Shown here one piece after another: positions 753 to 40,588 of a stretch of 64,000 nt of DNA. The position numbers and the translations under genes were made by a program. The DNA is from Ideonella sp. (GTDB taxonomy: Bacteria; Pseudomonadota; Gammaproteobacteria; Burkholderiales; Burkholderiaceae_C). Position 1 is the first letter of the stretch; every line of letters begins with the position of its first letter. The notes beneath the pieces are model-generated. The model did no database searches and was not told the origin of the DNA. It was given only the letters and a program-made list of their open reading frames with translations. Location of the stretch: assembly GCF_036277275.1 (NCBI RefSeq), contig NZ_DASUNH010000110.1, forward strand, positions 2,014 to 66,013, in the 5' to 3' direction.

Positions 753-1402
753 GCTTTCTTCCTCAGCCTGGCGGATGGGGGCGTGCGCAGCGCGATCAGC
801 GCCATCTGGACGCGCTGCTTGATGGCGGCGTCACTCAGCACCTGGGCCTGCACTGCATTGCCGACGATGGCCGGGGCAACGCCGAGCGATGCCATGGCGG
901 GCGCCGCCAGCATTGGCGACAGCACCGCACCCATCAAGAACACAAAGCGCTGCAGCGGCGGCGCGGGTTGCAGCTCGCCGGCTGCTTCGGCCTCGGCCAT
1001 CAGTTGCATCAGCAGGCCCAGGTGGCGTGGCGCGTTGGCGCGGACGAAGTCGTGCACCACCGTTTCGCCATTGGCCGCATCGACGGCCAGCCGGCCGACC
1101 AACGCGTGATGCTCGCGCACGAAGGTGCCGAGCGTGATCAGCGCAGCCTGCAGTCGATCGAGCACCGGGCCTTCGCGCGTGGCCCCGGCCGACAGCTTGG
1201 CGAACATCTGTTCGTACAGCTGCTGCAGCACCGCCTGCAGGAACGCGGCCTTGCTGCCGAAGTGGTAGTGAAACATCGCCGGGTTGACGCCCGCATGCTC
1301 AGCCACCCGCCGCACCGACAAGCCGGCGCAGCCGAGTTGCGGCAGCAGGGCCAGGCCGCTGCGCAGCAGGGCTTGATCGATGCCTTGGGATGGGCGGGCC
1401 AC
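749..1402 (-). CDS. TetR/AcrR family regulator (CecR/YbiH-like position upstream of HlyD)
   Basis: HTH LSVRRVAEHAGVNPAMFHYHFGSK; translationally coupled to the HlyD gene. Confidence 0.9.
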   Translation of the reverse strand: MARPSQGIDQALLRSGLALLPQLGCAGLSVRRVAEHAGVNPAMFHYHFGSKAAFLQAVLQQLYEQMFAKLSAGATREGPVLDRLQAALITLGTFVREHHALVGRLAVDAANGETVVHDFVRANAPRHLGLLMQLMAEAEAAGELQPAPPLQRFVFLMGAVLSPMLAAPAMASLGVAPAIVGNAVQAQVLSDAAIKQRVQMALIALRTPPSARLRKKA

Positions 1403-1408
1403 GGTGAA

Positions 1409-1430
1409 TTATTGGTCGAGTGACCAGTAA
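1409..1430. promoter_or_regulatory. Probable TetR autoregulatory operator
   Basis: Inverted repeat ttattggtc-gagt-gaccagtaa (1 mismatch) immediately upstream of the TetR start. Confidence 0.6.
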
Positions 1431-1613
1431 ATGGCAAGCCCATGCGGGCGGGTGGGGCGTGACGCCTGACGTGTTTCCTCCGGCGAACGGCGGGGGCTTG
1501 GGACTGCGCTGGCAGCGGAAGCGCTGACGGCTTTTTCCTACACCACTTCGGTCCAATGGCCGATGCCGCGCATTGGCTCGGGGAGGCACATTGGGCTGAT
1601 CACGAAGGAGTAA

Positions 1614-1826
1614 TTGACCATGCTGAAACGACTTTGCATGATTGCCCTCTGCGGCGCATCACTGGCCACCTTGAGCGCCTGCGTGGTGGCACCGGCGGCC
1701 CCGCGTCCGGGATACGTGCACGACGGAGACAGAGATGGTGTGCCGAACCGGTACGACCGTGACCGGGACAACGACGGCGTGCCCAACCGCTACGACCGAC
1801 GGCCGTACACGCCGTACCAGCGCTGA
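1614..1826 (+). CDS. Small lipoprotein with two thrombospondin-type-3-like DxDxDGVPNRYD repeats
   Basis: Lipobox LSAC, then DGDRDGVPNRYD/DRDNDGVPNRYD; RBS aaggag upstream; start may be ATG 1620. Confidence 0.75.
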   Translation: MTMLKRLCMIALCGASLATLSACVVAPAAPRPGYVHDGDRDGVPNRYDRDRDNDGVPNRYDRRPYTPYQR

Positions 1827-1985
1827 CGTCGAGTAAGCGCGGGCGGGCGATAGCCGCCCGTGCAGCTTTCGACGCTAGCGGAACACAAAAAGCGCGTCTT
1901 TGGCCGCCTGGCGTCGTTGCAAATCCCTCGCGATGCCACTGGCATTGCTGCGGTTTGCGCCGAGCCAGACAACCAACTCATTGCG

Positions 1986-4957: not shown

Positions 4958-5569
4958 TCAGAAGGACGGCAGCATCTCGCACCGCGACGAACCGGGAAGC
5001 AAGAGCGTTCTGCCCTTGGCGTACGGGACGACCGAGAGCAATGCCTTGGCCACTGCCGACGCGTTGATCGGCGCGGCGATGAGGAATCCCACCGCCCTTC
5101 CGACGAGGTTGCGTTTTCCGACGAGCACCGATGGCCGCGCGATGGCCGTGCCCTGGAACGGCAGCTTCGCCAAAGCGTCTTCGAGCTCGCCTTTCACGCG
5201 GCTGTGGAAGACGTTCGAACGGGAGTCGGCGCCCATCGCGCTCACCAGACCGAGTTTCTTGGCGCCTGCGGCCAGCGCCGCCGCGGCCACGGCCAGATTG
5301 GCCTCGTAGTTGATGGCGCGAAGTGCGGCCTGGCTTCCGGCGACCCTGATCGTCGTTCCGAGCGCCAGATACACCTCGTCTACCGGTGGCAGGGCGGGCA
5401 GCCTGGCGAAGTCGACGACATGGGCCGTCAGCTTCGGATGTTGTGCCGCGGGCCTCTTGCGGCCCAGGCTGTGCACCGCGTCGACGGTCCGGTCGGTCAA
5501 CAGGCCCTGCAGAATCTCTCGGCCCACGCGGCCCGTGGCGCCTGCAATGAGGACGGTTCGGTTTGGCAT
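4958..5569 (-). CDS. NAD(P)H-binding atypical SDR (YraR/TIP30-like)
   Basis: GATGRVG Rossmann motif, LGTT, VSAMGAD, SRVKGE. Confidence 0.8.
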   Translation of the reverse strand: MPNRTVLIAGATGRVGREILQGLLTDRTVDAVHSLGRKRPAAQHPKLTAHVVDFARLPALPPVDEVYLALGTTIRVAGSQAALRAINYEANLAVAAAALAAGAKKLGLVSAMGADSRSNVFHSRVKGELEDALAKLPFQGTAIARPSVLVGKRNLVGRAVGFLIAAPINASAVAKALLSVVPYAKGRTLLLPGSSRCEMLPSF

Positions 5570-5582
5570 GCGTGCTTTTTAG

Positions 5583-5603
5583 CGAAAAACGGTTCGGTTA
5601 AAA
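5583..5603. promoter_or_regulatory. Repeated motif CGAA-N6-TTCGGTTAAAA, copy 1 (upstream of SDR)
   Basis: Same motif and spacing found at 6212-6232. Confidence 0.45.
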
Positions 5604-5620
5604 ATCAAAAGAAACCGGCT

Positions 5621-6193
5621 TCATGCCCTGACGGCGTCCCAGCAGATCTGGAAGCCGCTGATGCGGGTCTTTTCGTCGTTTGGCAGATCGCCGCGGGCGA
5701 CGAGGACTGCGGTCTCTTTCGCCAGGCCCATGACGCTCGCTGCCAGCAGGTGCGGCGGCACGGGCTTGAGTTGCTCACTCTTCTGTCCGGCGACGATGAG
5801 CTCGATGAACGGCGCCAACATGCGCTGGCTCATCGCGCGGCTGGTCTCGCTGAGGAACTCGGAGTGGTAGTACTGCTCGAGGAAAGCCATCTGTTGCTGG
5901 TTCTCGATGCGGTTGTCCACCATGTTGTTCCAGATCCGGCGCACTCTCGACTTCAGCGAGGCCTGCGGTTCGTCATTCTGTGCGTAGCGTGTGACGGTGG
6001 CCGTCTTGGCTTTCTGGTACACATCGTCGAGCAAATCCTCGCGGGACTTGTAGTAGACGTACAGCGTGCTGGTCGCGACGCCTGCGTCGCGGGCGATGTC
6101 GGCCAAGGTCACGGCAGACAGACCATGGCGCGCCACCAGCCGGTAGACGGCAGCGGCAATGGCTTCAACCTTTTTCTCGTCCTTGGGCCTCAT
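5621..6193 (-). CDS. TetR/AcrR family regulator
   Basis: HTH VTLADIARDAGVATSTLYVYYKSRE. Confidence 0.9.
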   Translation of the reverse strand: MRPKDEKKVEAIAAAVYRLVARHGLSAVTLADIARDAGVATSTLYVYYKSREDLLDDVYQKAKTATVTRYAQNDEPQASLKSRVRRIWNNMVDNRIENQQQMAFLEQYYHSEFLSETSRAMSQRMLAPFIELIVAGQKSEQLKPVPPHLLAASVMGLAKETAVLVARGDLPNDEKTRISGFQICWDAVRA

Positions 6194-6211
6194 CGTGATT
6201 TGGATCGTACA

Positions 6212-6232
6212 CGAACATTTATTCGGTTAAAA
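6212..6232. promoter_or_regulatory. Repeated motif CGAA-N6-TTCGGTTAAAA, copy 2 (upstream of TetR)
   Basis: Quasi-palindromic CGAA...TTCG core, matches 5583-5603. Confidence 0.45.
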
Positions 6233-6325
6233 GTGCTTTCTTGCACCGGCTGAATCGCCAGACGCGCGTCGCGCCAGCCGCCGGAGGTCAGCGCCAAAAG
6301 CCGTGAGGCCCATCTGCGGCCAGCG

Positions 6326-7372
6326 TCAGGCGGCGTCGGGTTTTGTCGTCGTCCACAGCTGCACCAGCGTCAACCCGATCGCGAGCATCGGCGGGCCAAT
6401 GAAGATGCCGATGAAGCCGTAGGCGACGATGCCGCCGAACACACCGAGCAGGATCAGCAGCAGCGGCAAGCTGCTGGCGCGGCTGATCAGGAAGGGCTTG
6501 ACGACGTTGTCGATCGAGCTGACCGCGAACAGGCCCCAGAGGACCATGAAGATGCCCCAGCCCACCGAGCCCTGCACGAAGAGCCAGATCGCCGCACCAC
6601 CCCAGATGAGCGGCGGGCCGACCGGGATCATCGAGAGCAAGAAGGTCGCGGAGGCCAGCGCCAACGCTCCCGGAACGCCGGCGATCAAGAAGCCGACCAG
6701 CGCCACCATGGCCTGCGCCAGCGCAGTGCCGAAGATACCGTGCACGACCCCGATCACCGTGCCGTTGATCGTCGACAGCAGCGTGTCGCCCAGGGGCCCT
6801 GCGAGCTTGGCCAGGATCGCGCGGGCGGCTCGCACCAGCTGTTCGCCGTCGCGGTAGAAGAAGAACGCGATGAAGGTGGCGAACGTCAGCTGCAGCAGGC
6901 TGCCGCCGATCGCCTTGCCGGCGCCCAGCAGCACGATGCGCGCCGGCTCGAACAGGCTCTTCAGCAGCGCATTCAACTCCTCGCGGCTGGCGGCGATGCG
7001 CTGCCAGTAGTCGGCCAGCGCGGCGCCGACGAGCGGCACATCGCGCAGCCAGCCGGGCGGCTGCAGCGGCCCGTGGTCGAGCAGGTTGCGCGCTCCGTCG
7101 AACATCGAGGCCACGTCATCGGCCAAGCTCAGGGCGAGCAGCGTCGACGGGCCGATCACCAGCACGACCAGCAGCAGTGTCATCAGCAGCGCGGCCCAGA
7201 CGGCGCGGCCGCCGACGGCGTCGCGCAGGCGCCGATAGAGTGGCCAGCTCGCGGTGCAGACGACCGCGGCGAACAACAGCGCCGGGATGAATGGATGCAG
7301 GACCTGATAGCAGCCGACGACAACGACCACGACGGCCGCCAGTCGGGCGTAATGCTGAAGACTGTGGTTCAT
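6326..7372 (-). CDS. AI-2E family (PerM/YdiK-like) transporter
   Basis: Multiple TM helices; IDNVVKPFLIS and GFIGIFIGP family motifs; start MNHSLQ at 7372. Confidence 0.85.
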   Translation of the reverse strand: MNHSLQHYARLAAVVVVVVGCYQVLHPFIPALLFAAVVCTASWPLYRRLRDAVGGRAVWAALLMTLLLVVLVIGPSTLLALSLADDVASMFDGARNLLDHGPLQPPGWLRDVPLVGAALADYWQRIAASREELNALLKSLFEPARIVLLGAGKAIGGSLLQLTFATFIAFFFYRDGEQLVRAARAILAKLAGPLGDTLLSTINGTVIGVVHGIFGTALAQAMVALVGFLIAGVPGALALASATFLLSMIPVGPPLIWGGAAIWLFVQGSVGWGIFMVLWGLFAVSSIDNVVKPFLISRASSLPLLLILLGVFGGIVAYGFIGIFIGPPMLAIGLTLVQLWTTTKPDAA

Positions 7373-7480
7373 GCCTGCCCTTCTCAGTGTTTCCCCGCCG
7401 GCGACTATGCCACCTCGGCGCAGGCCGGCGGCCAAGCTGCGCGAAGTGGTGGTGAAGCGGGCTGATAGACTTCCCCCTGA

Positions 7481-7534
7481 CAGCGCCGATTTGTTCCGGA
7501 TTGCGGGCGCTCTACCAAATGCAGCTAAACAGGG
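7481..7534 (+). ncRNA. SAM-II riboswitch
   Basis: gcgcc-GATTT...TTGC-gggcgc...AAATGCAGCTAAAC-AGGG matches the SAM-II H-type pseudoknot consensus; lies upstream of metX. Confidence 0.85.
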
Positions 7535-7544
7535 CCCCGACTTG

Positions 7545-7584
7545 AACCCGGTGTCCGCGTCTTCGCTGCGGTACCGGGTTTTTT
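7545..7584 (+). terminator. Intrinsic terminator between the SAM-II aptamer and metX start
   Basis: aacccggt...accgggtt stem followed by a T6 run, 18 nt before the ATG. Confidence 0.7.
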
Positions 7585-7602
7585 CGTTGGAGGTCAGGTT
7601 TC

Positions 7603-8724
7603 ATGAGGTCGGTCGGCTTCGTCGTCCCGCAAAGCATGCATTTCGCCGAGCCGTTGCCGCTGCGAAGTGGCGCGCAGCTTGCCGACTACACCCTGGTCTA
7701 CGAGACCTACGGCACGCTGAACGCCGATGCCAGCAATGCCGTGCTGGTGTGCCATGCGCTGAACGCGTCTCACCATGTGGCCGGCGATTACGCCGACAAA
7801 CCCAACAGCACCGGCTGGTGGGACAACCTCGTCGGCCCCGGCAAACCACTGGACACGGAGCGCTTCTTCGTCATCGGCGTCAACAACCCCGGTTCATGCT
7901 TCGGCTCGACCGGGCCGATGCACCCGAATCCGGCGACCGGCCGCCCCTATGGCGCCGACTTTCCAGTCGTGACGGTGGAGGATTGGGTCGACGCCCAAGC
8001 GCGACTGGTCTCGCGCCTGGGCATCCAGCAGCTGGCTGCGGTGGTCGGCGGCAGCCTCGGTGGCATGCAGGCGCTGGCCTGGACGCTGCGCCACACCGAT
8101 CGTGTGCGGCATTGCGTGGCGGTGGCCACTGCGCCGAACCTGTCGGCGCAGAACATCGCCTTCAACGAGGTGGCGCGGCGCGCGATCGTGACCGATCCCG
8201 ATTTCCACGGCGGCCATTTCTACGCCCACGGCGCGATCCCGAAGCGCGGCCTTCGCGTGGCCCGCATGATCGGCCACATCACCTACCTGAGCGACGACTC
8301 GATGGAGGCCAAGTTCGGCCGCGAGCTGCGCGAGGCCGAGCTGGGCTACAGCACGCAGGACATCGAGTTCCAGATCGAAAGCTACCTGCGTTACCAGGGC
8401 GACAAGTTCAGCGAGTATTTCGACGCCAACACCTACCTGCTGATCACCCGCGCACTGGACTACTTCGACCCGGCGCGTGCGCATGGCGATGACCTGACGG
8501 CAGCCTTCAAGGTGGCGCGCGACAAGAAGTTCCTCGTCGTCAGCTTCACCACCGACTGGCGCTTCTCGCCAGCACGCTCGCGTGAGATCGTCAAGGCACT
8601 GGTCGACAACCAAATCGAGGTCAGCTACGCCGAGATCGACGCGCCGCACGGCCACGATGCCTTCTTGCTCGAAGATCCGCGCTACCACGGCGTGATGCGG
8701 GCGTACTTCGAGCGGATCCTGTGA
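7603..8724 (+). CDS. metX: Homoserine O-acyltransferase (acetyl/succinyl)
   Basis: [17 protein letters not shown] nucleophile elbow, HGHDAFL. Confidence 0.95.
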
Positions 8725-8797
8725 CCCCCACGCTCGCCGCCGCTTCGCTGCCCCCCGAGGGGACCCTTGCAGCGGCCCGGCAAAGCCGGATCCGCGC
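8724..8797 (+). repeat. Short REP-like element related to the 189-bp repeats
   Basis: cccccacg start, ccccccgagggg hairpin and gcagcggcccggcaaagccggatccgcgca shared with 40588 and 42211. Confidence 0.7.
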
Positions 8798-8832
8798 AAG
8801 AACCTTGATCAAATTCGACCCCATCGATACGT

Positions 8833-9417
8833 ATGAGTGAGCGAAAAGACCTCGAAGTCATCGCCCGGCTGGTGCCGCAAGGCGCCCGCGTGCTCGACCT
8901 GGGCTGCGGCACGGGTGAGCTGTTGGCCTATCTGCGTGAGACGCGCGGCTGTTCGGGCTATGGCGTGGAGCTGGACGATGCCAACGTGCTGGCCTGCGCG
9001 CGGCGAGGCGTGAACGTGATCCAGCTCAACCTCGAAGAGGGGTTGAAGCTGTTCGAGGACCGCAGCTTCGACGTCGTGCTGCAGCTCGAAACCCTGCAGC
9101 ACCTTCGCAATACCGAGAACATGCTGCGCGAGACCGCTCGTGTTGGCCGCATCGGCATCGTCAGCTTCCCGAACTTCGCGCACTGGGTCAACCGCCTGTC
9201 GATCCTGCGCGGGCGCATGCCGGTGACGCGCGCGCTGCCGTATGAGTGGTACGACACGCCGAACATCCGCGTCGGCACCTACAAGGACTTCGAGGTGCTG
9301 GCGCGCAAGAATGGGCTCGAGGTGATCGACAGCTTCGGCCTGCAAAGCGGCGAGGTGATCCGCCGCTGGCCGAACCTGCGCGCCAGCGTGGCGGTGTTCA
9401 AGTTCGAACGCAGCTAG
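8833..9417 (+). CDS. metW: Methionine biosynthesis protein MetW (SAM-dependent methyltransferase fold)
   Basis: VLDLGCGTG, IVSFPNFAHW, WYDTPNI; follows metX. Confidence 0.93.
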   Translation: MSERKDLEVIARLVPQGARVLDLGCGTGELLAYLRETRGCSGYGVELDDANVLACARRGVNVIQLNLEEGLKLFEDRSFDVVLQLETLQHLRNTENMLRETARVGRIGIVSFPNFAHWVNRLSILRGRMPVTRALPYEWYDTPNIRVGTYKDFEVLARKNGLEVIDSFGLQSGEVIRRWPNLRASVAVFKFERS

Positions 9418-32011: not shown

Positions 32012-35000
32012 ATGGGCAAGCCAAACAGCAGGGCAGTACGCAACCACCGGTTGATCGCGGTCGCCGTGCTGTGTGGTGGCGTTCTGTTGTCGCTGGGCAT
32101 CAGCCAATCGGCCCGGGACGAGACCCGGCGAAGTGCCCAAGTGCGTTTCGACGCCGCTTCCACCAGCGCCGGCGGCGAGGTCGAACGGCGCTTTGCCGCC
32201 TACGTCGAGGTGCTGGCCGGGCTGCGCGCGCTGTTCCAGACCGGCGAGGTGTCTCGCGAGGCCTTTCGCCGCTATGCCGAGGCCCTGGACCTCAAGCGCA
32301 GCTTTCCCGGCTTCCAGGTCTTGAACTACGCCCCGGTGGTGCTTGCGCCGGACAAAGAGGCCTTCGAGGTGGTGTTGAGGCAAGACCCGTCCGTCGCGGC
32401 GCGCGAGCGCTTCGCGATCACGCCACCAGGCGCTCGCGATGTCTACCAGCCAATCACGCTGATCGAGCCGCTGGCCGGCAATGAAATGGTCATCGGCAAG
32501 GACATTGCCATCGTTCCCGATGTGCGCGCCGCGCTCGAATCCGCCCGCGACTCGGGTCGCCTCAGCGCGTCTGGCAAGTTGATCCAGGTCCGCGGCCAGG
32601 AAGGGAAGGTCGGTTTGGCGATGCGCCTGCCGGTCTACCGGCCCGGCCTGCCGGTCGCCACGGTCGAGCAGCGCCGCGAGGCTTATCTGGGCAGCGTGGG
32701 GGCTGGCTTCCTCGTCACACAGATGCTGGAGAGCCTGCCGGCGCCCACGCATGGCGTGCGCCTGCGGATCTTCGATGGCGGCCGCGAGCCAGCGCCGGAT
32801 GCGCCGCTCGCCGCGCCCGTGGTGCAGCCCGACAAGCTGGTCTTCGACACCGACAAGGCCGTCCGTGCCGGGCAGGCCGTGGCGGGTGCGGCTGCCGTCG
32901 GCGTTTCACCGCGCAGCGCGGCCGCCAGCGAGCAGGTCCCCAGTGCCGACAGCGGGTTCTACAGCATTGGCTCGTTTGCGCTGGGAGGCCGGGTCTGGCT
33001 GGTCGAGGCCTCGGCGCCTTTCGACCAGGGTGTCGGTACGCTGGAACGCCTGCTGCCCGCCATCGTGTTGGTGGGCGGCTTCATCATCAGCGCCTTGCTG
33101 GCGGGCGTGCTGCTCAGTCTGTTGGGTGGCAGGCGCCGGGCGCTGGCCCTGGCCCTCGACATGACGCACAGCCTGCGCAGCAGCGAGCAGCGCCTGGCCG
33201 AGGCCCAGTCGCTGGCCAAGCTGGGCAGCTGGGTACTCGATGTGTCCAGCGGCAACATCGAATGCTCGGATGAAGCCGGACGCATCTATGGCCATGAGGC
33301 CGGCTCGACGGCGCTGACACTGCCCAGGCTTCTGGCGCTGGTGCCGGACATGCAGCGCGCCGCATTGAGCGAAGCGGTGCGGCGGGCCGAGCACAGCGAC
33401 GAACGGGTGGAGATCGAGCACGCGGTGCGCCTGCCCGATGGTGGTGACCGCTGGGTGCATGTCAACCTGCGGCGGTCGACGGAAGATGGCGTTGCGGCGG
33501 TGCGCGCGACCGTGCGCGACGAGACCGGACGCAAGAAGGCGGCATTGCGCCTGGAGCTGGCGCACGACATCGGCCAGAAGCTGGCGATCGAGACCGAGCC
33601 CGAGAACGCGGTGGCCTACATCCTGTCGTCGATCGGCTCCCGCCTGCAATGGAATGCCGCGGCCTGCTGGCTGCGCGAGGCCGACGGCCAGCTGCGCTGC
33701 CTGCAAGCCTGGGTGCAGGGCGACGCGCCGGAACTGGGTGATTTCGCGATTGCCATGCGGCGCTGGCGCAGCCCGCTCGCCAGCAGCCATGTCGAATCGG
33801 CGTCGATCACCGGCAATCCGACATGGCGCAGCATTCCCTTGGTCGGCGCCATGAACGACGAAGACCTCGTGGCCGGCCGATGCGGCCTGCAGGCCGCAAT
33901 GCTGATCCCGGTGAGCGCGGGCCCCCAATGGGCCGCGCTGGAGTTCTTCAGCCGCGCGCCGATCAGCGTGGACCGCGAGATCGAAGGCTTCATGCGCTCG
34001 ATCGCCAGCCAGCTGGCGCAGTACCTGCAGCGCAAGCAGGCCGAGAAAGCCCTGCGCCATGTGGCGCACCACGACGCACTGACCGGGCTGGCCAACCGCC
34101 CGCTGCTGCACGATCGGCTCGTGCACGCCACGCAGCGCGCGGCGCGCCTGCAGAACCGGGTCGCAGTGCTGTTCATGGATCTGGACCGGTTCAAGTACGT
34201 CAACGACAGCCTGGGCCACAGTGCCGGCGACATGCTGCTGCGTGCCTGCGCCGACCGCCTGCGGGCCTGCGTGAGGGAAAGCGACACCGTGGCCCGCTTC
34301 GGTGGCGACGAATTCGTCGTCGTCCTGGAAGGGCTCGGCAGCGCGAGTGACGTGGTGGCGCCGCTGACCAAGATCCTGAGCCGTTTCAACGCGCCGTTCG
34401 AGGTCAATGGGCGCGAGCTGACCACCACCGCCAGCATCGGCGTCAGCATGTTTCCCGACGATGGGCAGGACGTCGAGACCTTGCTGATGTACGCCGATGC
34501 CGCGATGTACCGCGCCAAGGAAAAGGGCGCGGGCAGCTACGAGTTCCACTCGGCGCAAGGCACTTCGCAAGGGCAGCAGCGGCTGGTGCTCGAAAGCAAC
34601 CTGCACCGTGCGCTGGAACGTGAAGAACTGTTCCTCGTCTACCAGCCGAAGCTGGAGCTGGCGACCGGCCGGGTCACTGGGGTCGAGGCGCTGATGCGTT
34701 GGCAACATCCGACGCTCGGCATGGTGTCGCCGGCCCAGTTCATCCCGATCGCCGAAGACACCGGCCTGATCGAAAGCATGGGCCAGTGGGCGCTCGAGGT
34801 GGCGTGCCGCGATGCGCTGCGTTGGCAGCACGAGGGCAACCCGGTGCAGGTGAGCGTCAACCTGTCGCCGCGCCAGCTGAACCGGCCCCGGCTGGTCGAA
34901 GAGGTCGCTCAGGTCCTGGCCCAGGCGGGCCTGGATGCATCGATGCTCGAACTGGAGATCACCGAAAGCGGCGTGATGCGCAACCCGACCCGTGCGGCCG

Positions 35001-35374
35001 CTCAGCTGCGCGAGTTGCGTGATCTCGGCGTGTCGCTGGCGATCGACGATTTCGGCACCGGCTACTCGTCGCTGTCGTACTTGCAGCGCTTTCCGCTCAG
35101 CACGCTGAAGATCGACCGTTCCTTCATCAAGGATCTGCCCGGCGACGAAGACGCCGCCGCCCTGACGGCCGGGATCATCGGGCTGGCCCAGCGCCTGCGC
35201 ATGAAGGTGGTGGCCGAGGGGGTCGAAACGCTGGAGCAGCTGGGCTTCCTGCGCAGCAACCACTGCGACCAGATCCAGGGCTTCTACCTGAGCAAACCGA
35301 TCACCGTGGGCGAGATGAGCCGATTCCTGGCCCGTGACGTGAGGAATTTCGTGAGCCCGGTGGTCGCGGCCTGA
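32012..35374 (+). CDS. CHASE-PAS-GAF-GGDEF-EAL c-di-GMP enzyme
   Basis: CHASE between two TMs; RFGGDEF; EAL; DDFGTGYSSL; EGVET; RBS gggag before ATG 32012. Confidence 0.92.
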   Translation: MGKPNSRAVRNHRLIAVAVLCGGVLLSLGISQSARDETRRSAQVRFDAASTSAGGEVERRFAAYVEVLAGLRALFQTGEVSREAFRRYAEALDLKRSFPGFQVLNYAPVVLAPDKEAFEVVLRQDPSVAARERFAITPPGARDVYQPITLIEPLAGNEMVIGKDIAIVPDVRAALESARDSGRLSASGKLIQVRGQEGKVGLAMRLPVYRPGLPVATVEQRREAYLGSVGAGFLVTQMLESLPAPTHGVRLRIFDGGREPAPDAPLAAPVVQPDKLVFDTDKAVRAGQAVAGAAAVGVSPRSAAASEQVPSADSGFYSIGSFALGGRVWLVEASAPFDQGVGTLERLLPAIVLVGGFIISALLAGVLLSLLGGRRRALALALDMTHSLRSSEQRLAEAQSLAKLGSWVLDVSSGNIECSDEAGRIYGHEAGSTALTLPRLLALVPDMQRAALSEAVRRAEHSDERVEIEHAVRLPDGGDRWVHVNLRRSTEDGVAAVRATVRDETGRKKAALRLELAHDIGQKLAIETEPENAVAYILSSIGSRLQWNAAACWLREADGQLRCLQAWVQGDAPELGDFAIAMRRWRSPLASSHVESASITGNPTWRSIPLVGAMNDEDLVAGRCGLQAAMLIPVSAGPQWAALEFFSRAPISVDREIEGFMRSIASQLAQYLQRKQAEKALRHVAHHDALTGLANRPLLHDRLVHATQRAARLQNRVAVLFMDLDRFKYVNDSLGHSAGDMLLRACADRLRACVRESDTVARFGGDEFVVVLEGLGSASDVVAPLTKILSRFNAPFEVNGRELTTTASIGVSMFPDDGQDVETLLMYADAAMYRAKEKGAGSYEFHSAQGTSQGQQRLVLESNLHRALEREELFLVYQPKLELATGRVTGVEALMRWQHPTLGMVSPAQFIPIAEDTGLIESMGQWALEVACRDALRWQHEGNPVQVSVNLSPRQLNRPRLVEEVAQVLAQAGLDASMLELEITESGVMRNPTRAAAQLRELRDLGVSLAIDDFGTGYSSLSYLQRFPLSTLKIDRSFIKDLPGDEDAAALTAGIIGLAQRLRMKVVAEGVETLEQLGFLRSNHCDQIQGFYLSKPITVGEMSRFLARDVRNFVSPVVAA

Positions 35375-35450
35375 GCCGCATCACCGGGGTCGCGCTTGAC
35401 CGCCAGCGGCAGCAGGCTGCTGGCATTTTTGACCCCTAGGGAGTTGATTG

Positions 35451-36191
35451 ATGCAATTGCTATCCGAAAACCGCGGTCTGGCGCAGGTGATGAACCGCAT
35501 TGCGGCGCTCGACCTGGCGCCCATCAAGTTCAAGATCACCAGCAAGGAAGACGGCTACGGCTGGACCGCCGAGCATGTCGATCGCATCGAGCTGGGCTAC
35601 AAGCGCTTCCTGGCACTGCTGGCCATGCACCCGGGGCAACAGTTGGCGCCCACGCGCGACATCGACAAGTTCTGGCACGCGCACATCCTGGACACGCGCA
35701 AGTACGCGGCGGACTGCGAGCTGATCTTCGGCGGCTTTCTGCACCACAACCCCTACCTGGGCATGCGCGGTGACGAAGACCGCCTGGACCAGGCCGCCCA
35801 GGCGCTTCACGGCCTGTTCGAGAGCGACTTCGGCGAAGAAGTGCCAGCCAACGCCCACATGGCAGCTGTCCCGGCCGATCCGGCCTGGTGCGGTGGCGAG
35901 CACGCTGACAAGTCCACGGCCTGGTGCGGCGGTGAGGCGCCTGCGGCCAAGGCGGCGGCCTGGTGCGGCGGCGAAGCGCCCGTTGAGAAGGCAGCAGCGT
36001 GGTGCGGTGGTGAAGCGCCGGCGGCCAAGGCAGCGGCCTGGTGCGGCGGCGAGGCGCCCATTGAGAAGGCAGCAGCGTGGTGCGGTGGTGAAGCGCCGGC
36101 GGCCAAGGCAGCGGCCTGGTGTGGCGGTGAAGCGCCGGCGAAGAAGGCCACGGCCGCAGCCTGGTGCGGCGGCGAAGCTCCGACCCACTGA
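35451..36191 (+). CDS. GRDP/DUF1399-like His-rich domain fused to eight AWCGGE repeats
   Basis: N-domain DKFWHAHILDTRKYAADC...GFLHHNPY; C-terminal 13-aa repeats; RBS agggag 7 nt before ATG 35451. Confidence 0.8.
   Translation: MQLLSENRGLAQVMNRIAALDLAPIKFKITSKEDGYGWTAEHVDRIELGYKRFLALLAMHPGQQLAPTRDIDKFWHAHILDTRKYAADCELIFGGFLHHNPYLGMRGDEDRLDQAAQALHGLFESDFGEEVPANAHMAAVPADPAWCGGEHADKSTAWCGGEAPAAKAAAWCGGEAPVEKAAAWCGGEAPAAKAAAWCGGEAPIEKAAAWCGGEAPAAKAAAWCGGEAPAKKATAAAWCGGEAPTH
35883..36188 (+). repeat. Coding tandem repeat, 8 units of about 39 nt
   Basis: Units encode AWCGGEAPxxKAA; synonymous codon variation between units; AAK/(V,I)EK alternation. Confidence 0.95.
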
Positions 36192-36267: not shown

Positions 36268-37788
<1,521 letters not shown>

Positions 37789-37916: not shown

Positions 37917-38858
37917 ATGAGCACCCGAATGTCGAATCCTGGCCGCGGCGCGGCGCTGTGGTCGCCCATCCACGCCCTGACCGTGCTGGCGGAGGCCGGC
38001 AGCTTCACCGCCGCTGCGCAGCGCCTGAACCTGAGCAAGGCCGCGATGAGCCAGCGCGTGGCCGAGTTGGAGGCCGCAGCTGGCGTGCCGCTGGTGCAGC
38101 GCACGACCCGAAGCATGCAGTTGACCGATGCTGGCAGGCAGCTGGTGGCGGCTACGCAGGGCGCGTTCGCCACCATTGACCAGGCGTTCGCCGAGGTGCG
38201 CGACCTGGCCGATGCGCCCAGCGGCCGGCTGCGAGTGACGGCACCGGTGGCGCTGGCGCGGCAGTGCATCGTGCCGTTGCTGCCCGGCTTTTTGCGTGCA
38301 CACCCGGCGCTGCAGGTCGAGTTGGACTTGTCCGACCGGTTGCGGCCGCTGGCGCAAGAAGGCTTCGACCTGGCGATCCGCCACACCAGCACGCCCCCGG
38401 ACACCCATGTCGCCTGGATGCTGCGCGAAACCCGCAGCGTGCTGCTGGCCAGCCCCGACTATCTTGCGCGCCGCCAGGCGCCGCGCGCGCCGCAGGACCT
38501 GCGCGATCACGAATGCCTGTTCTACCCGCGCGCCGGCGACACCGCGGCGTGGAGCTTCGAGCGCAAGGCGGGCGAGCGCGTCAGCGTGCCGCTGAAGGGG
38601 CCTTTTGCGGCGAACAACAGCGAGGCGCTGCGTGAGGCGGCGCTGGCCGGCCTGGGCATCACGCTGTTGCCTGATTTCAGCGCCGAGCCGGCCCTGGCGG
38701 CGGGTGAGCTGGTCGAGTTGTTGCCGAGCTGGCATGCCGTGGGGGCCTTTGGCACCCACCTGTGGGCGATCCGGCCGTACGCGGCCCAAGTGCCGCGGGG
38801 TGTGCGGGCGCTGGTGGCCTGGCTGGCCCAGGCGCTGGGCGGCCGTGCGCCGGTGTGA
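37917..38858 (+). CDS. LysR family regulator (CrgA-like)
   Basis: [24 protein letters not shown]; start 37917 or 37929. Confidence 0.92.
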
Positions 38859-38931
38859 AGCGTGGTCGATGCCACGTCAGCCTGAAGAAAGGAATTGCAC
38901 CGTTCGAGTGCCGCAAATCACGTGAGTCGGC

Positions 38932-38959
38932 TCAAGTCGGGCGTCGAACAATCCGAAAA
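38932..38959 (+). promoter_or_regulatory. Possible sigma-28 (FliA) promoter for the MCP
   Basis: TCAAG-N15-TCCGAAAA versus consensus TCAAG/TAAA...GCCGATAA; spacing is about 1 nt long. Confidence 0.4.
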
Positions 38960-39004
38960 CCGATCAGACCGACCCAACCGACACGAGTCCGGAGACACAC
39001 GACC

Positions 39005-40588
39005 ATGGCTGTTCCTTCTTTCGCGCGCTTGACGCTGGCCCGTCGCCTGGGCTTTGGCTTCGGCAGTCTGTTGCTGATGTTGCTGGTCGTCGCCGGCCTC
39101 AGCGTGGCCGAGTTGCGTGCCCAGGGCAGTCGCGTGCAAGACATCGTCGGCGTCAAGAACGAGAAGTTGGCGCTGGCCAACAGCATGCTGGAAAGCATCA
39201 ACAGCCTGGCGATCCAGGCCCGCACGGTCACGCTGCTGACCGATGTGAAGGCCATCGACGTCGAGATGAAGGTGCTGGCCGATGCGAAGAAGCGCTACGT
39301 CACCGGCGAAGCCGCACTGCTGGCATTGATCGGCTCGACCGCCGATGCCGACGAGCGTGCGTTGATGAACGACATCGTCGAGAGCGGCAAGAAAACCATC
39401 CCGCTGGTCGAGCGCGCCGCCAAGGAAGGCGAAGCCGGCGCCGGCGTCGAAGCCACGATGACGCTGACCGAGGCCGTGCGCCCGGTCGAGATCGTTTGGC
39501 GCCAGAAGGTCGCCAAGCTGATCGACATCGTGCACAAGCAGAACACCGAAGCCGCCGAGGCCGTGATCAGCTCGCAAAAGCGTGCGCTGCTGATGGTGGC
39601 TGCGCTGATGGCTGGTGCCATGGTCGCTGGCGTGTTGCTGGCGTGGCGCACCACGCGCAGCATCACCGTGCCGGTGGCGCGTGCCGTCAAAGTGGCCGAG
39701 CGGATCGCCGAAGGCGACCTGACCTCGACGGTCGAGGTCACCTCGCAAGACGAGATCGGCCGCCTGCTGCAAGCCATTCACGGCATGCAGGACAGATTGC
39801 GTTCGCTGGTGGGCGATATCCGCCAGTCGGCCGAGTCGATCCAGACCGCGAGCACCGAAGTGGCCGTGGGCAACCAGGATCTGTCGCAACGCACCGAGCA
39901 GACTGCCAGCAACCTGCAGCAGGCTGCGTCGTCGATGACGCAACTGACCGGCACGGTGAACCAGTCGGCTGAAGCCGCGAGCCAGGCCAACCAGATGGCC
40001 AGCTCGGCCTCGGCGGTGGCCAAACGCGGTGGCGAGGTCGTGGCGCAGGTCGTCTCGACGATGAACGAGATCAACAACAGTTCACGCAAGATCGCTGACA
40101 TCATTGGTGTGATCGACGGCATCGCGTTCCAGACCAACATCCTGGCCCTGAACGCCGCGGTGGAAGCGGCGCGCGCCGGTGAACAAGGCCGTGGCTTTGC
40201 GGTGGTGGCGGGTGAAGTGCGTTCGCTGGCCCAGCGCAGCGCCGAAGCGGCGAAGGAAATCAAGGGCCTGATCGGCACCAGCGTCGACAAGGTCGAGGCC
40301 GGCAGCCGGCTGGTCGGCGATGCCGGCAGCACGATGGGCGAGATCGTCGCCAGCGTGCAGCGGGTGTCCGGCATCATCAGCGAGATCACCGCCGCCGCTG
40401 CCGAGCAGAGCACTGGCATCGGCCAGGTCAGCGGCGCGGTCGGCCAGCTCGACCAGATGACCCAGCAAAACGCTGCGCTCGTGGAGCAATCAGCCGCGGC
40501 GGCCGAGAGCCTGAAGGGCCAGGCGGCCCGCTTGGCAGAACTGGTCAGCGTCTTCCGCCTGCAGCGCGACGCGAACTACATTCATTGA
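39005..40588 (+). CDS. Methyl-accepting chemotaxis protein (4HB sensor, HAMP)
   Basis: Two TMs; DEIGRL HAMP; [30 protein letters not shown]. Confidence 0.95.

Follow-up and report, generated by a model that had tools for sequence, protein, structure and literature searches.

A 64,000-nucleotide stretch of Ideonella sp. DNA (hereafter, the window) encodes a 246-residue protein, read from an open reading frame (ORF) at positions 35451 to 36191 of the forward strand, in which a His-rich, all-helical N-terminal domain (N-domain) is joined to eight tandem AWCGGE units, and the question raised by this locus is what such a protein is for. The best explanation of the data presented here is that this repeat gene belongs to a two-gene signaling module found across the Burkholderiales, its partner being the gene for a membrane sensor harboring a periplasmic CHASE domain. 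A first-pass annotation of the window made no mention of this pairing, the conservation of which shifts the likely role of the repeat protein from that of a free-standing natural product toward signaling. Judging from the conserved linkage of the two genes, the repeat protein and the CHASE sensor very probably act in one pathway. That the tail is cleaved and probably modified, that the resulting peptide enters the periplasm, and that the CHASE domain senses it there and then alters cyclic di-GMP (c-di-GMP) turnover is a longer chain of steps, to which as a whole we assign a probability of roughly 0.4.

The potential-ligand motifs of the N-domain and the eight AWCGGE units pointed out in the first-pass annotation are both present in this single frame. 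The Trp residues of the WCGGE cores occupy positions 146, 158, 171, 184, 197, 210, 223, and 238 and are spaced 12 to 15 residues apart; one 12- to 13-residue cassette of the tail reads CGGEAPAAKAAAW. Tandem Repeats Finder resolves 7.7 copies of a 39-nt unit and 2.8 copies of a 78-nt unit (93% match), and the longer period supports the earlier proposal that the tail grew by 78-nt duplications. The same annotation had suggested selection on the core, and a comparison of codons among the eight units bears this out: pairwise comparison of the six core codons A-W-C-G-G-E yields 65 synonymous and zero nonsynonymous differences, whereas spacer positions between cores show seven to 23 nonsynonymous differences, indicative of purifying selection on the core peptide and not on the DNA repeat. 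The tail is probably disordered, as judged from a predicted local distance difference test (pLDDT) score below 55 in an AlphaFold 2 (AF2) model. A double-glycine cleavage site (WCGG/E) was considered and rejected, since most relatives harbor non-Gly residues at those positions.

All close homologs share this plan of an N-domain followed by tandem cassettes, and 312 distinct repeat-bearing proteins provide the tail statistics that follow. The number of cassettes ranges from 3 to 19 (median of 7), with a period of 8 to 20 residues (median of 12). Position −1 of the cassette is Ala in 93% of these proteins; position 0 is Trp (57%), Tyr (25%), Phe (12%), Met (5%), or Leu (1%); position +1 holds Cys in 95% and Ser in 5%; and position +2 is Gly, Ala, or Ser in 86%, with later positions variable. 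The core conserved across the family is limited to A-[W/Y/F/M/L]-[C/S]-[G/A/S], and the view that WCGGE itself is the selected motif holds for the window protein, where it is invariant, but not for the family, which keeps only the Ala-hydrophobic-Cys/Ser-small pattern. Homologous tails devoid of any conserved core had been named beforehand as a finding that would speak against a self-processing peptide system or metal-binding array; the homologs retain a conserved core. Each protein carries essentially one core, and cores differ between species, with WCGGE in the window protein and WCGAE, WCSLE, FCSIE, WCGRA, WCTRT, YCASP, AMCGV, ALCGV, or YSGRV in other relatives; locus L001 of Variovorax paradoxus, for instance, carries five WCSLE copies. 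Copy number also changes readily, from eight in the window protein to seven in a 93%-identical ortholog. Multiple copies (3–19), a single core per protein, variation of that core between species, and selection on it together make the tail precursor-like.

In ≈5% of the repeat-bearing relatives, all cores are of the Ser type, and the tail is devoid of any Cys (AYSGR ×12, AYSSA ×15, and AWSGA ×11). These tails bear directly on the possibility, raised in the first-pass annotation as a Cu/Zn/Fe–S chelating array, that the tail is a thiol-rich chelator or redox sink merely coregulated with the sensor. One Cys per cassette, 95% Cys across the family, the eight thiols of the window protein, the His-rich N-domain, and the Cys-rich tails of the wider superfamily are all compatible with such a role. 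Cys-free tails make it less likely, however, that metal or redox chemistry based on thiolates is the general function, and the Ser-type proteins are still paired with CHASE sensors; a single thiol beside a bulky hydrophobic residue matches no known chelating motif, and the conserved Ala and hydrophobic residues would be left unexplained. We therefore view a metal or redox buffer as a remote prospect, and the original suggestion as weakened. The interchange of Cys and Ser would instead fit a shared nucleophile chemistry, for example heterocyclization with the preceding carbonyl or cleavage via an N-to-S/O acyl shift.

The sensor gene lies directly 5′ of the repeat gene on the same strand, in an ORF that is open from TTG 31802 and for which ATG 32012 is the likely start. 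Its product matches the Pfam CHASE (2.8e-41), GGDEF (8.6e-49), and EAL (1.1e-78) families. The solved structure nearest to its CHASE domain is 6k62 (E = 1.5e-15), deposited as “Histidine kinase” and which we take to be Xanthomonas PcrK. The genome harbors one UCP032817-like repeat gene and only four CHASE genes, one of which is this sensor gene, so that the chance of finding a CHASE gene next to the repeat gene is ≈0.1%.

To search for CHASE domains around other loci, we used our own hidden Markov model (HMM) built from three Burkholderiales sequences, together with an N-domain HMM of our own. The repeat gene has a CHASE ORF beside it in 72 of 80 genome loci; six of the eight unpaired loci have a truncated flank, and two (L044 and L076) truly lack a CHASE gene. 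The CHASE sensor is the immediate neighbor in five of six independently fetched homolog contigs, as it is in the window, and 20 of 23 repeat-bearing metagenome loci with enough flank are CHASE-paired in a scan that was seeded with repeat-less members. In a sample of 301 genomes of the order, eight carry a repeat-family gene and 97 carry some CHASE domain; all four evaluable repeat-bearing loci are paired and neither of two repeat-less loci is, with the genomes of the latter two giving no CHASE match at E ≤ 1e-10. A phylum-wide sample of 401 genomes yielded 17 with the N-domain, and among the 16 loci fetched the sole CHASE-paired one carries AYSGR repeats, the other 15 being repeat-less kin. 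None of 14 repeat-less metagenome loci is paired, for a total of 0 of 31 repeat-less kin searched (15 phylum, 14 metagenome, and two order loci). CHASE pairing thus tracks the repeat tail.

The pairing occurs in four arrangements. In the first, found in Ideonella (including the window), Aquabacterium, Rhizobacter, and Variovorax, a CHASE-GGDEF-EAL gene lies 5′ of the repeat gene. In the second (Massilia and Duganella), a CHASE-HisKA_3 kinase gene is upstream, and sometimes two repeat-gene paralogs flank the kinase. In the third, the repeat gene is followed by a CHASE-(PAS)-kinase gene, with a NarL-type response regulator gene next in eight of nine loci, and this order of repeat gene, kinase, and regulator resembles that of three-component peptide-pheromone operons. 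In the fourth (Noviherbaspirillum), repeat gene and sensor are divergent. Sensor outputs are of two types, GGDEF-EAL or HisKA_3 kinase, and the only constant parts across the paired sensors are the CHASE domain and its transmembrane segments; the shortest partners, at ≈620 residues, have no cytoplasmic sensory domain. In four Massilia/Telluria loci (L039, L062, L075, and L084), two repeat-gene paralogs with different cores flank CHASE kinase genes, with YCASP or YCAGP upstream and WCAGP or FCAGP downstream. Three of these (L062, L075, and L084) contain two CHASE ORFs, and the two paralogs could represent two signals per locus.

This diversity of arrangements is relevant to whether the linkage is merely inherited Burkholderiales synteny, with the repeat protein having a separate function, such as that of a stress protein akin to the plant glycine-rich domain-containing proteins (GRDPs). 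In a tree of CHASE domains, each arrangement forms one clade, with nonadjacent paralogs outside, which implies few independent events, and three repeat-bearing loci with full flanks (L007, L044, and L076) have no CHASE gene. Arguing in the other direction, adjacency has outlasted inversions, swaps of gene order, a swap of output domain, and divergence of the CHASE domain to ≈35 to 40% identity, while all other neighbors changed; furthermore, the gene is patchy in the order (8 of 301 genomes), yet the sensor accompanies it wherever repeats are present. We consider simple synteny quite improbable on these grounds.

The N-domain (residues 1–135), which carries KFWHAHILDTRKYAADCELIFGGFLHHNP, harbors the motifs W75-H76-x-H78, D88-C89, and H98-H99-x-P101. 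Precomputed Pfam annotation assigns PF27765.1 (“UCP032817-like”) to the repeat protein and to all 120 homologs listed, and assigns PF07173.18 to some homologs. The assignment to GRDP/DUF1399 made in the first-pass annotation falls just short by the PF07173 threshold (22.6 bits versus a gathering cut-off of 22.7; E = 1.8e-4) in a partial match of residues 50 to 88 to profile positions 101 to 143 of 143, that is, the last third only; PF27765 is the proper family. At the level of fold, the assignment stands. AF2, run with a 71-sequence alignment, predicts that residues 10 to 130 form a compact all-helical structure (pLDDT ≈96), and Foldseek finds matches to giant-virus “glycine-rich domain-containing protein(-like)” entries in BFVD with E-values of 5e-6 to 6e-4, among them a GRDP-like protein from Harvfovirus (E = 2e-5; TM-score of 0.66 on target) and an Orpheovirus GRDP (E = 2e-4). 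By its predicted fold, the N-domain belongs to the GRDP-like superfamily. Searches of the PDB returned no sequence match to the family profile at E ≤ 10 and no Foldseek match to the N-domain below E = 1 (best E = 1.2), and NCBIfam, including TIGR04222, gave no match to the repeat protein at E ≤ 1. An HD-GYP fold match in the PDB (E = 1.8; TM-score of 0.14) was dismissed, as was a Pfam Galaxin_repeat match below cut-off (E = 0.014), which we regard as a low-complexity artifact.

The N-domain alone matches 7534 clusters (50% identity) at E ≤ 1e-3. Across 71 homologs, D72, W75, H76, H78, T82, Y85, D88, C89, G94, H98, H99, P101, F127, and G128 are invariant, and those from D72 to P101 are preserved in the repeat-less subgroup and in far-off membrane-anchored kin with transmembrane or TIGR04222 fusions. 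This superfamily-wide invariant His/Asp/Cys/Tyr cluster looks like a candidate active or metal site, and the predicted helix-turn-helix-loop arrangement would bring these residues together in space. The family is catalogued but unstudied: literature searches on DUF1399/PF07173, PF27765/UCP032817, the repeat motifs, and CHASE with peptide retrieved only plant GRDP phenotype papers and an MNIO survey discussing TIGR04222 tails, and the module is not described in them.

Repeat-less kin from the phylum sample end in short Cys-bearing segments, in a transmembrane segment plus a Gly/Cys tail, or in a TIGR04222 fusion, and Cys/Gly-rich tail ends, anticipated for family members, are thus seen in distant kin. 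A further relative is encoded in the same genome as the window on contig C124 (locus L089, positions 1153–1890, reverse strand). This distant 245-residue paralog is of the classic “glycine-rich domain” type, with an N-terminal transmembrane helix, an ELWHEFILHT..Y..FC..FGRFLHHTP motif, and a Gly/Ser/Cys tail whose last residues are CGGGGCGGGGD, and has no match in NCBIfam. Repeat-less kin from metagenome loci L162, L167, L173, and L179 (GC content of 0.43–0.50) carry tails with four to five Cys and a conserved terminal Arg-Pro; a gene for an S9-family (prolyl-oligopeptidase-type) hydrolase lies directly 3′ of such Arg-Pro-ended kin in four loci, which hints at proteolytic processing after Pro in that group and gives these kin a conserved neighbor of a second kind, different from the CHASE sensor. 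On a low-GC metagenome contig (L133, positions 5150–9130), two UCP032817-like genes carry TATCTEI[YH]AD and AAKCVPVTD repeats, and after each of them comes the gene for a TonB-dependent receptor; this single locus looks like a tandemly duplicated pair of repeat protein and outer-membrane receptor.

We favor the following reading of these data. The repeat protein would be made in the cytoplasm, with its tail serving as a multicopy precursor. The tail would then be cut, and its hydrophobic-Cys/Ser dipeptides would probably be modified. The N-domain of the protein itself may do this, with the superfamily-wide invariant His cluster as the candidate processing site. A small peptide or peptide-derived molecule would arrive in the periplasm, where the CHASE domain of the neighboring sensor would read this tail-derived ligand; in the window, the CHASE-GGDEF-EAL sensor would then set c-di-GMP turnover. 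The periplasmic input domain is all that the partner sensors have in common, so that whatever the CHASE domain binds offers the most straightforward connection between the two proteins. CHASE domains bind small ligands, and a peptide ligand is not without precedent, as the CHASE kinase DhkA of Dictyostelium recognizes the peptide SDF-2 (PMC1863423). While we observe directly how the protein is built, that its core is under selection, and that its gene is linked to CHASE genes in four arrangements, the processing, modification, export, and CHASE binding of a tail product are steps that we infer. An extension of this reading, in which a self-processing repeat protein makes the native ligand of the CHASE receptor and thus defines a new class of Gram-negative autoinducer controlling c-di-GMP or a NarL-type regulator, is tentative and somewhat unlikely; here, the Ala-hydrophobic-Cys/Ser array would supply a small modified peptide or a heterocycle in many copies.

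Several findings weigh against the precursor-receptor reading. The repeat protein has no signal peptide, as the first-pass annotation had also concluded, and its N-terminus is not hydrophobic; with TTG 35448 the earliest start codon past the upstream stop and a Shine–Dalgarno sequence preceding ATG 35451, the N-terminus cannot be extended to reveal a hidden one. Also in agreement with that annotation, we find no modifying enzyme, peptidase, or exporter adjoining the repeat gene in the window, and no exporter, peptidase, or maturase family recurs as a third gene across the arrangements (a clustering of crude ORFs that is coarse owing to high-GC shadow ORFs), leaving no evident route to the periplasm. 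The spacers show no evident conserved site for cleavage, and AF2 gives no confident docking of the low-pLDDT tail on the His cluster. Among 24 GGDEF-EAL-type loci, the extra CHASE divergence where the core differs is not significant (1.8% identity; permutation p = 0.087), in a comparison confounded by phylogeny. The paired loci all derive from related lineages, and the counts are not independent events. Finally, a terminator-like hairpin, which lies ≈20 nt 5′ of the Shine–Dalgarno sequence, sits between the sensor and repeat genes. Most loci of the CHASE-GGDEF-EAL-upstream arrangement harbor a hairpin of different sequence at the equivalent place. The element could act as a terminator, attenuator, or stabilizer, and may adjust how strongly the two genes are expressed relative to each other.

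Some of these same observations would be expected if the repeat protein were a cytoplasmic partner in the same pathway and not a source of ligand, either modulating the sensor or being controlled by it. The protein could be a His-rich enzyme or binding module with a tail that provides multivalent docking sites or a pseudo-substrate, or it could be the dedicated output of the pathway. The absence of a signal peptide and exporter and the failure to find covariation of CHASE and core sequences are consistent with this, as are identities in close pairs of 88% for the N-domain versus 71 to 77% for the CHASE domain, as expected of an enzyme or adaptor. On the other hand, a cytoplasmic partner does not readily explain why the periplasmic CHASE domain is the only sensor part common to all pairs while outputs differ, nor why the ≈620-residue partners have no cytoplasmic sensory domain, and docking does not account for how quickly the core sequence and the number of copies change. 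On balance, we think this explanation unlikely.

Alternatively, the tail could indeed be a precursor, but one whose maturase (MNIO, radical SAM, YcaO, or another type) is encoded at an unlinked locus, with the N-domain functioning as a large leader or chaperone; the product might be metallophore-like, and might or might not serve as a ligand of the CHASE sensor. Relevant to this, GRDP-like domains are found N-terminal to TIGR04222 membrane proteins with Ser/Cys-rich C-termini in loci L124 and L127 (genomes G283 and G241), and Cys-rich tails of TIGR04222 proteins are proposed substrates of Cys-modifying MNIO enzymes (PMC12452194); candidate MNIO substrates are thus fused to domains distantly related to the N-domain. 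The genome containing the window encodes two MNIO (PF05114) enzymes, on contigs C30 and C125 (L128 and L129). Neither gene is in the repeat-gene cluster, and both reside in complete bufferin-type operons on these other contigs, with partners DUF2282, DUF2063, and DoxX; DUF2063 is found beside both MNIO genes, and the DUF2282 precursor and DoxX beside one. We therefore find no support for MNIO involvement with the repeat protein. No maturase recurs near the 80+ loci, and the invariant His/Asp/Cys/Tyr cluster resembles an active or metal site more than it does a leader, all of which makes dependence on an unlinked maturase improbable.

The features discussed here are collected in Table 1. Genes 3′ of the repeat gene in the window encode a methylmalonate-semialdehyde-type aldehyde dehydrogenase (36268–37788, reverse strand), a LysR regulator (37917–38858, forward strand), and a methyl-accepting chemotaxis protein (38762–40588, forward strand); this gene order is also present in locus L130 but is not kept in the other arrangements.

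Table 1. Window coordinates of the CHASE sensor gene, the repeat gene, and the elements within and between them
Feature	Position	Strand	Basis and remarks
CHASE-GGDEF-EAL membrane sensor	32012..35374	+	TM1, CHASE, TM2, PAS/GAF region, GGDEF, EAL (TM, transmembrane segment); Pfam
Periplasmic CHASE domain of sensor	~32246-32797	+	Residues 79-262
GC-rich hairpin followed by T-run, terminator-like	35402..35431	+	Terminator scan; in the 76-nt gap between sensor and repeat gene
Shine–Dalgarno sequence AGGGAG of repeat gene	35438-35443	+	7 nt 5′ of ATG 35451; direct sequence reading
N-terminal all-helical domain, UCP032817-like, predicted GRDP-like fold	35451..35855	+	Residues 1 to ~135; AF2, PF27765, and fold match
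His/Asp/Cys/Tyr cluster, D72 to P101	35664..35753	+	Candidate metal or catalytic site; conserved in homolog alignments
Eight tandem cassettes, core A-W-C-G-G-E, with Ala/Lys-rich spacers	35883..36176	+	Translation, Tandem Repeats Finder, codon comparison

The pair makes two questions testable. One concerns the ligands of bacterial CHASE receptors, of which only the plant cytokinin read by Xanthomonas PcrK is known. The other is the function of GRDP/DUF1399, a domain with no known activity that occurs in thousands of bacterial proteins as well as in plants, protists, and giant viruses; self-processing, if true, would be the first biochemical activity for a fold shared with plants and giant viruses. 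If the tail is the source of the ligand, Betaproteobacteria would have a peptide-based signal, cell–cell or autocrine, whose cores are specific to the species, and the compact fused precursor architecture would be of interest for the discovery of ribosomally synthesized and post-translationally modified peptides.

How does this module compare with known systems? The repeat protein shares its N-domain with the PF27765 and PF07173 (DUF1399) families, which include plant AtGRDP1/2 and GhGRDP1 and have no known biochemistry; its FWHxHIL..Y motif corresponds to the last third of PF07173, and low-complexity Cys/Gly tails commonly follow the domain. Plant GRDPs have Gly-rich tails, and all that is known of them is phenotypes in stress and development (PMC4299439, PMC8585784); neither tandem hydrophobic-Cys cassettes nor a CHASE partner appears in the papers that we found. 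Unlike TIGR04222/bufferin-type MNIO substrates, the repeat protein has no TIGR04222 match, transmembrane segment, or MNIO neighbor. On the receptor side, the partner CHASE domain probably has its closest relative of solved structure in the CHASE domain of Xanthomonas PcrK, presumably the protein in 6k62. PcrK reads a plant hormone and, as far as described, has no linked repeat protein (PMC7072313).

Fused precursors are known from the plant BURP-domain peptide cyclases, in which an enzyme-like domain and tandem aromatic-containing cores reside in one polypeptide, with no separate maturase. Like burpitide precursors, the repeat protein carries tandem cores behind an enzyme-like domain (eight here and 3–19 in relatives). 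The differences are an unrelated all-helical fold, with no Pfam match of the repeat protein to the BURP domain (PF03181), a bacterial host, no secretory signal, cores centered on Cys or Ser, and a receptor-linked gene. A precursor with no signal peptide is also known in Dictyostelium, in the form of AcbA. The AcbA–SDF-2–DhkA pathway is similar to the one proposed here in that a CHASE-domain kinase reads a peptide (PMC1863423) but differs in being eukaryotic, with unlinked genes, a single peptide, and an acyl-CoA-binding-protein precursor.

Three-component peptide-pheromone operons are organized in the order precursor, kinase, and regulator. Precursors in ComCDE, PlnABCD, AgrBDCA, and ComQXPA, mostly from Gram-positive bacteria, are short and single-core, with leaders and dedicated exporters or maturases, and are read by polytopic receptors and not by CHASE domains; here, we find a 135-residue conserved domain, 3 to 19 cores, no exporter, and, in the window, an output through c-di-GMP and not a phosphorelay. 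A secretion signal, exporter, or processing enzyme expected of a pheromone cassette is likewise not found, but the expected linkage of precursor to receptor gene is (72 of 80 genome and 20 of 23 metagenome loci). As in those four operons, a precursor-like gene adjoins those of a sensor kinase and a regulator in eight of nine loci of one clade, the HisKA_3 kinase and NarL-type regulator are of the same types as ComP and ComA, and the peptide part is strongly variable between species.

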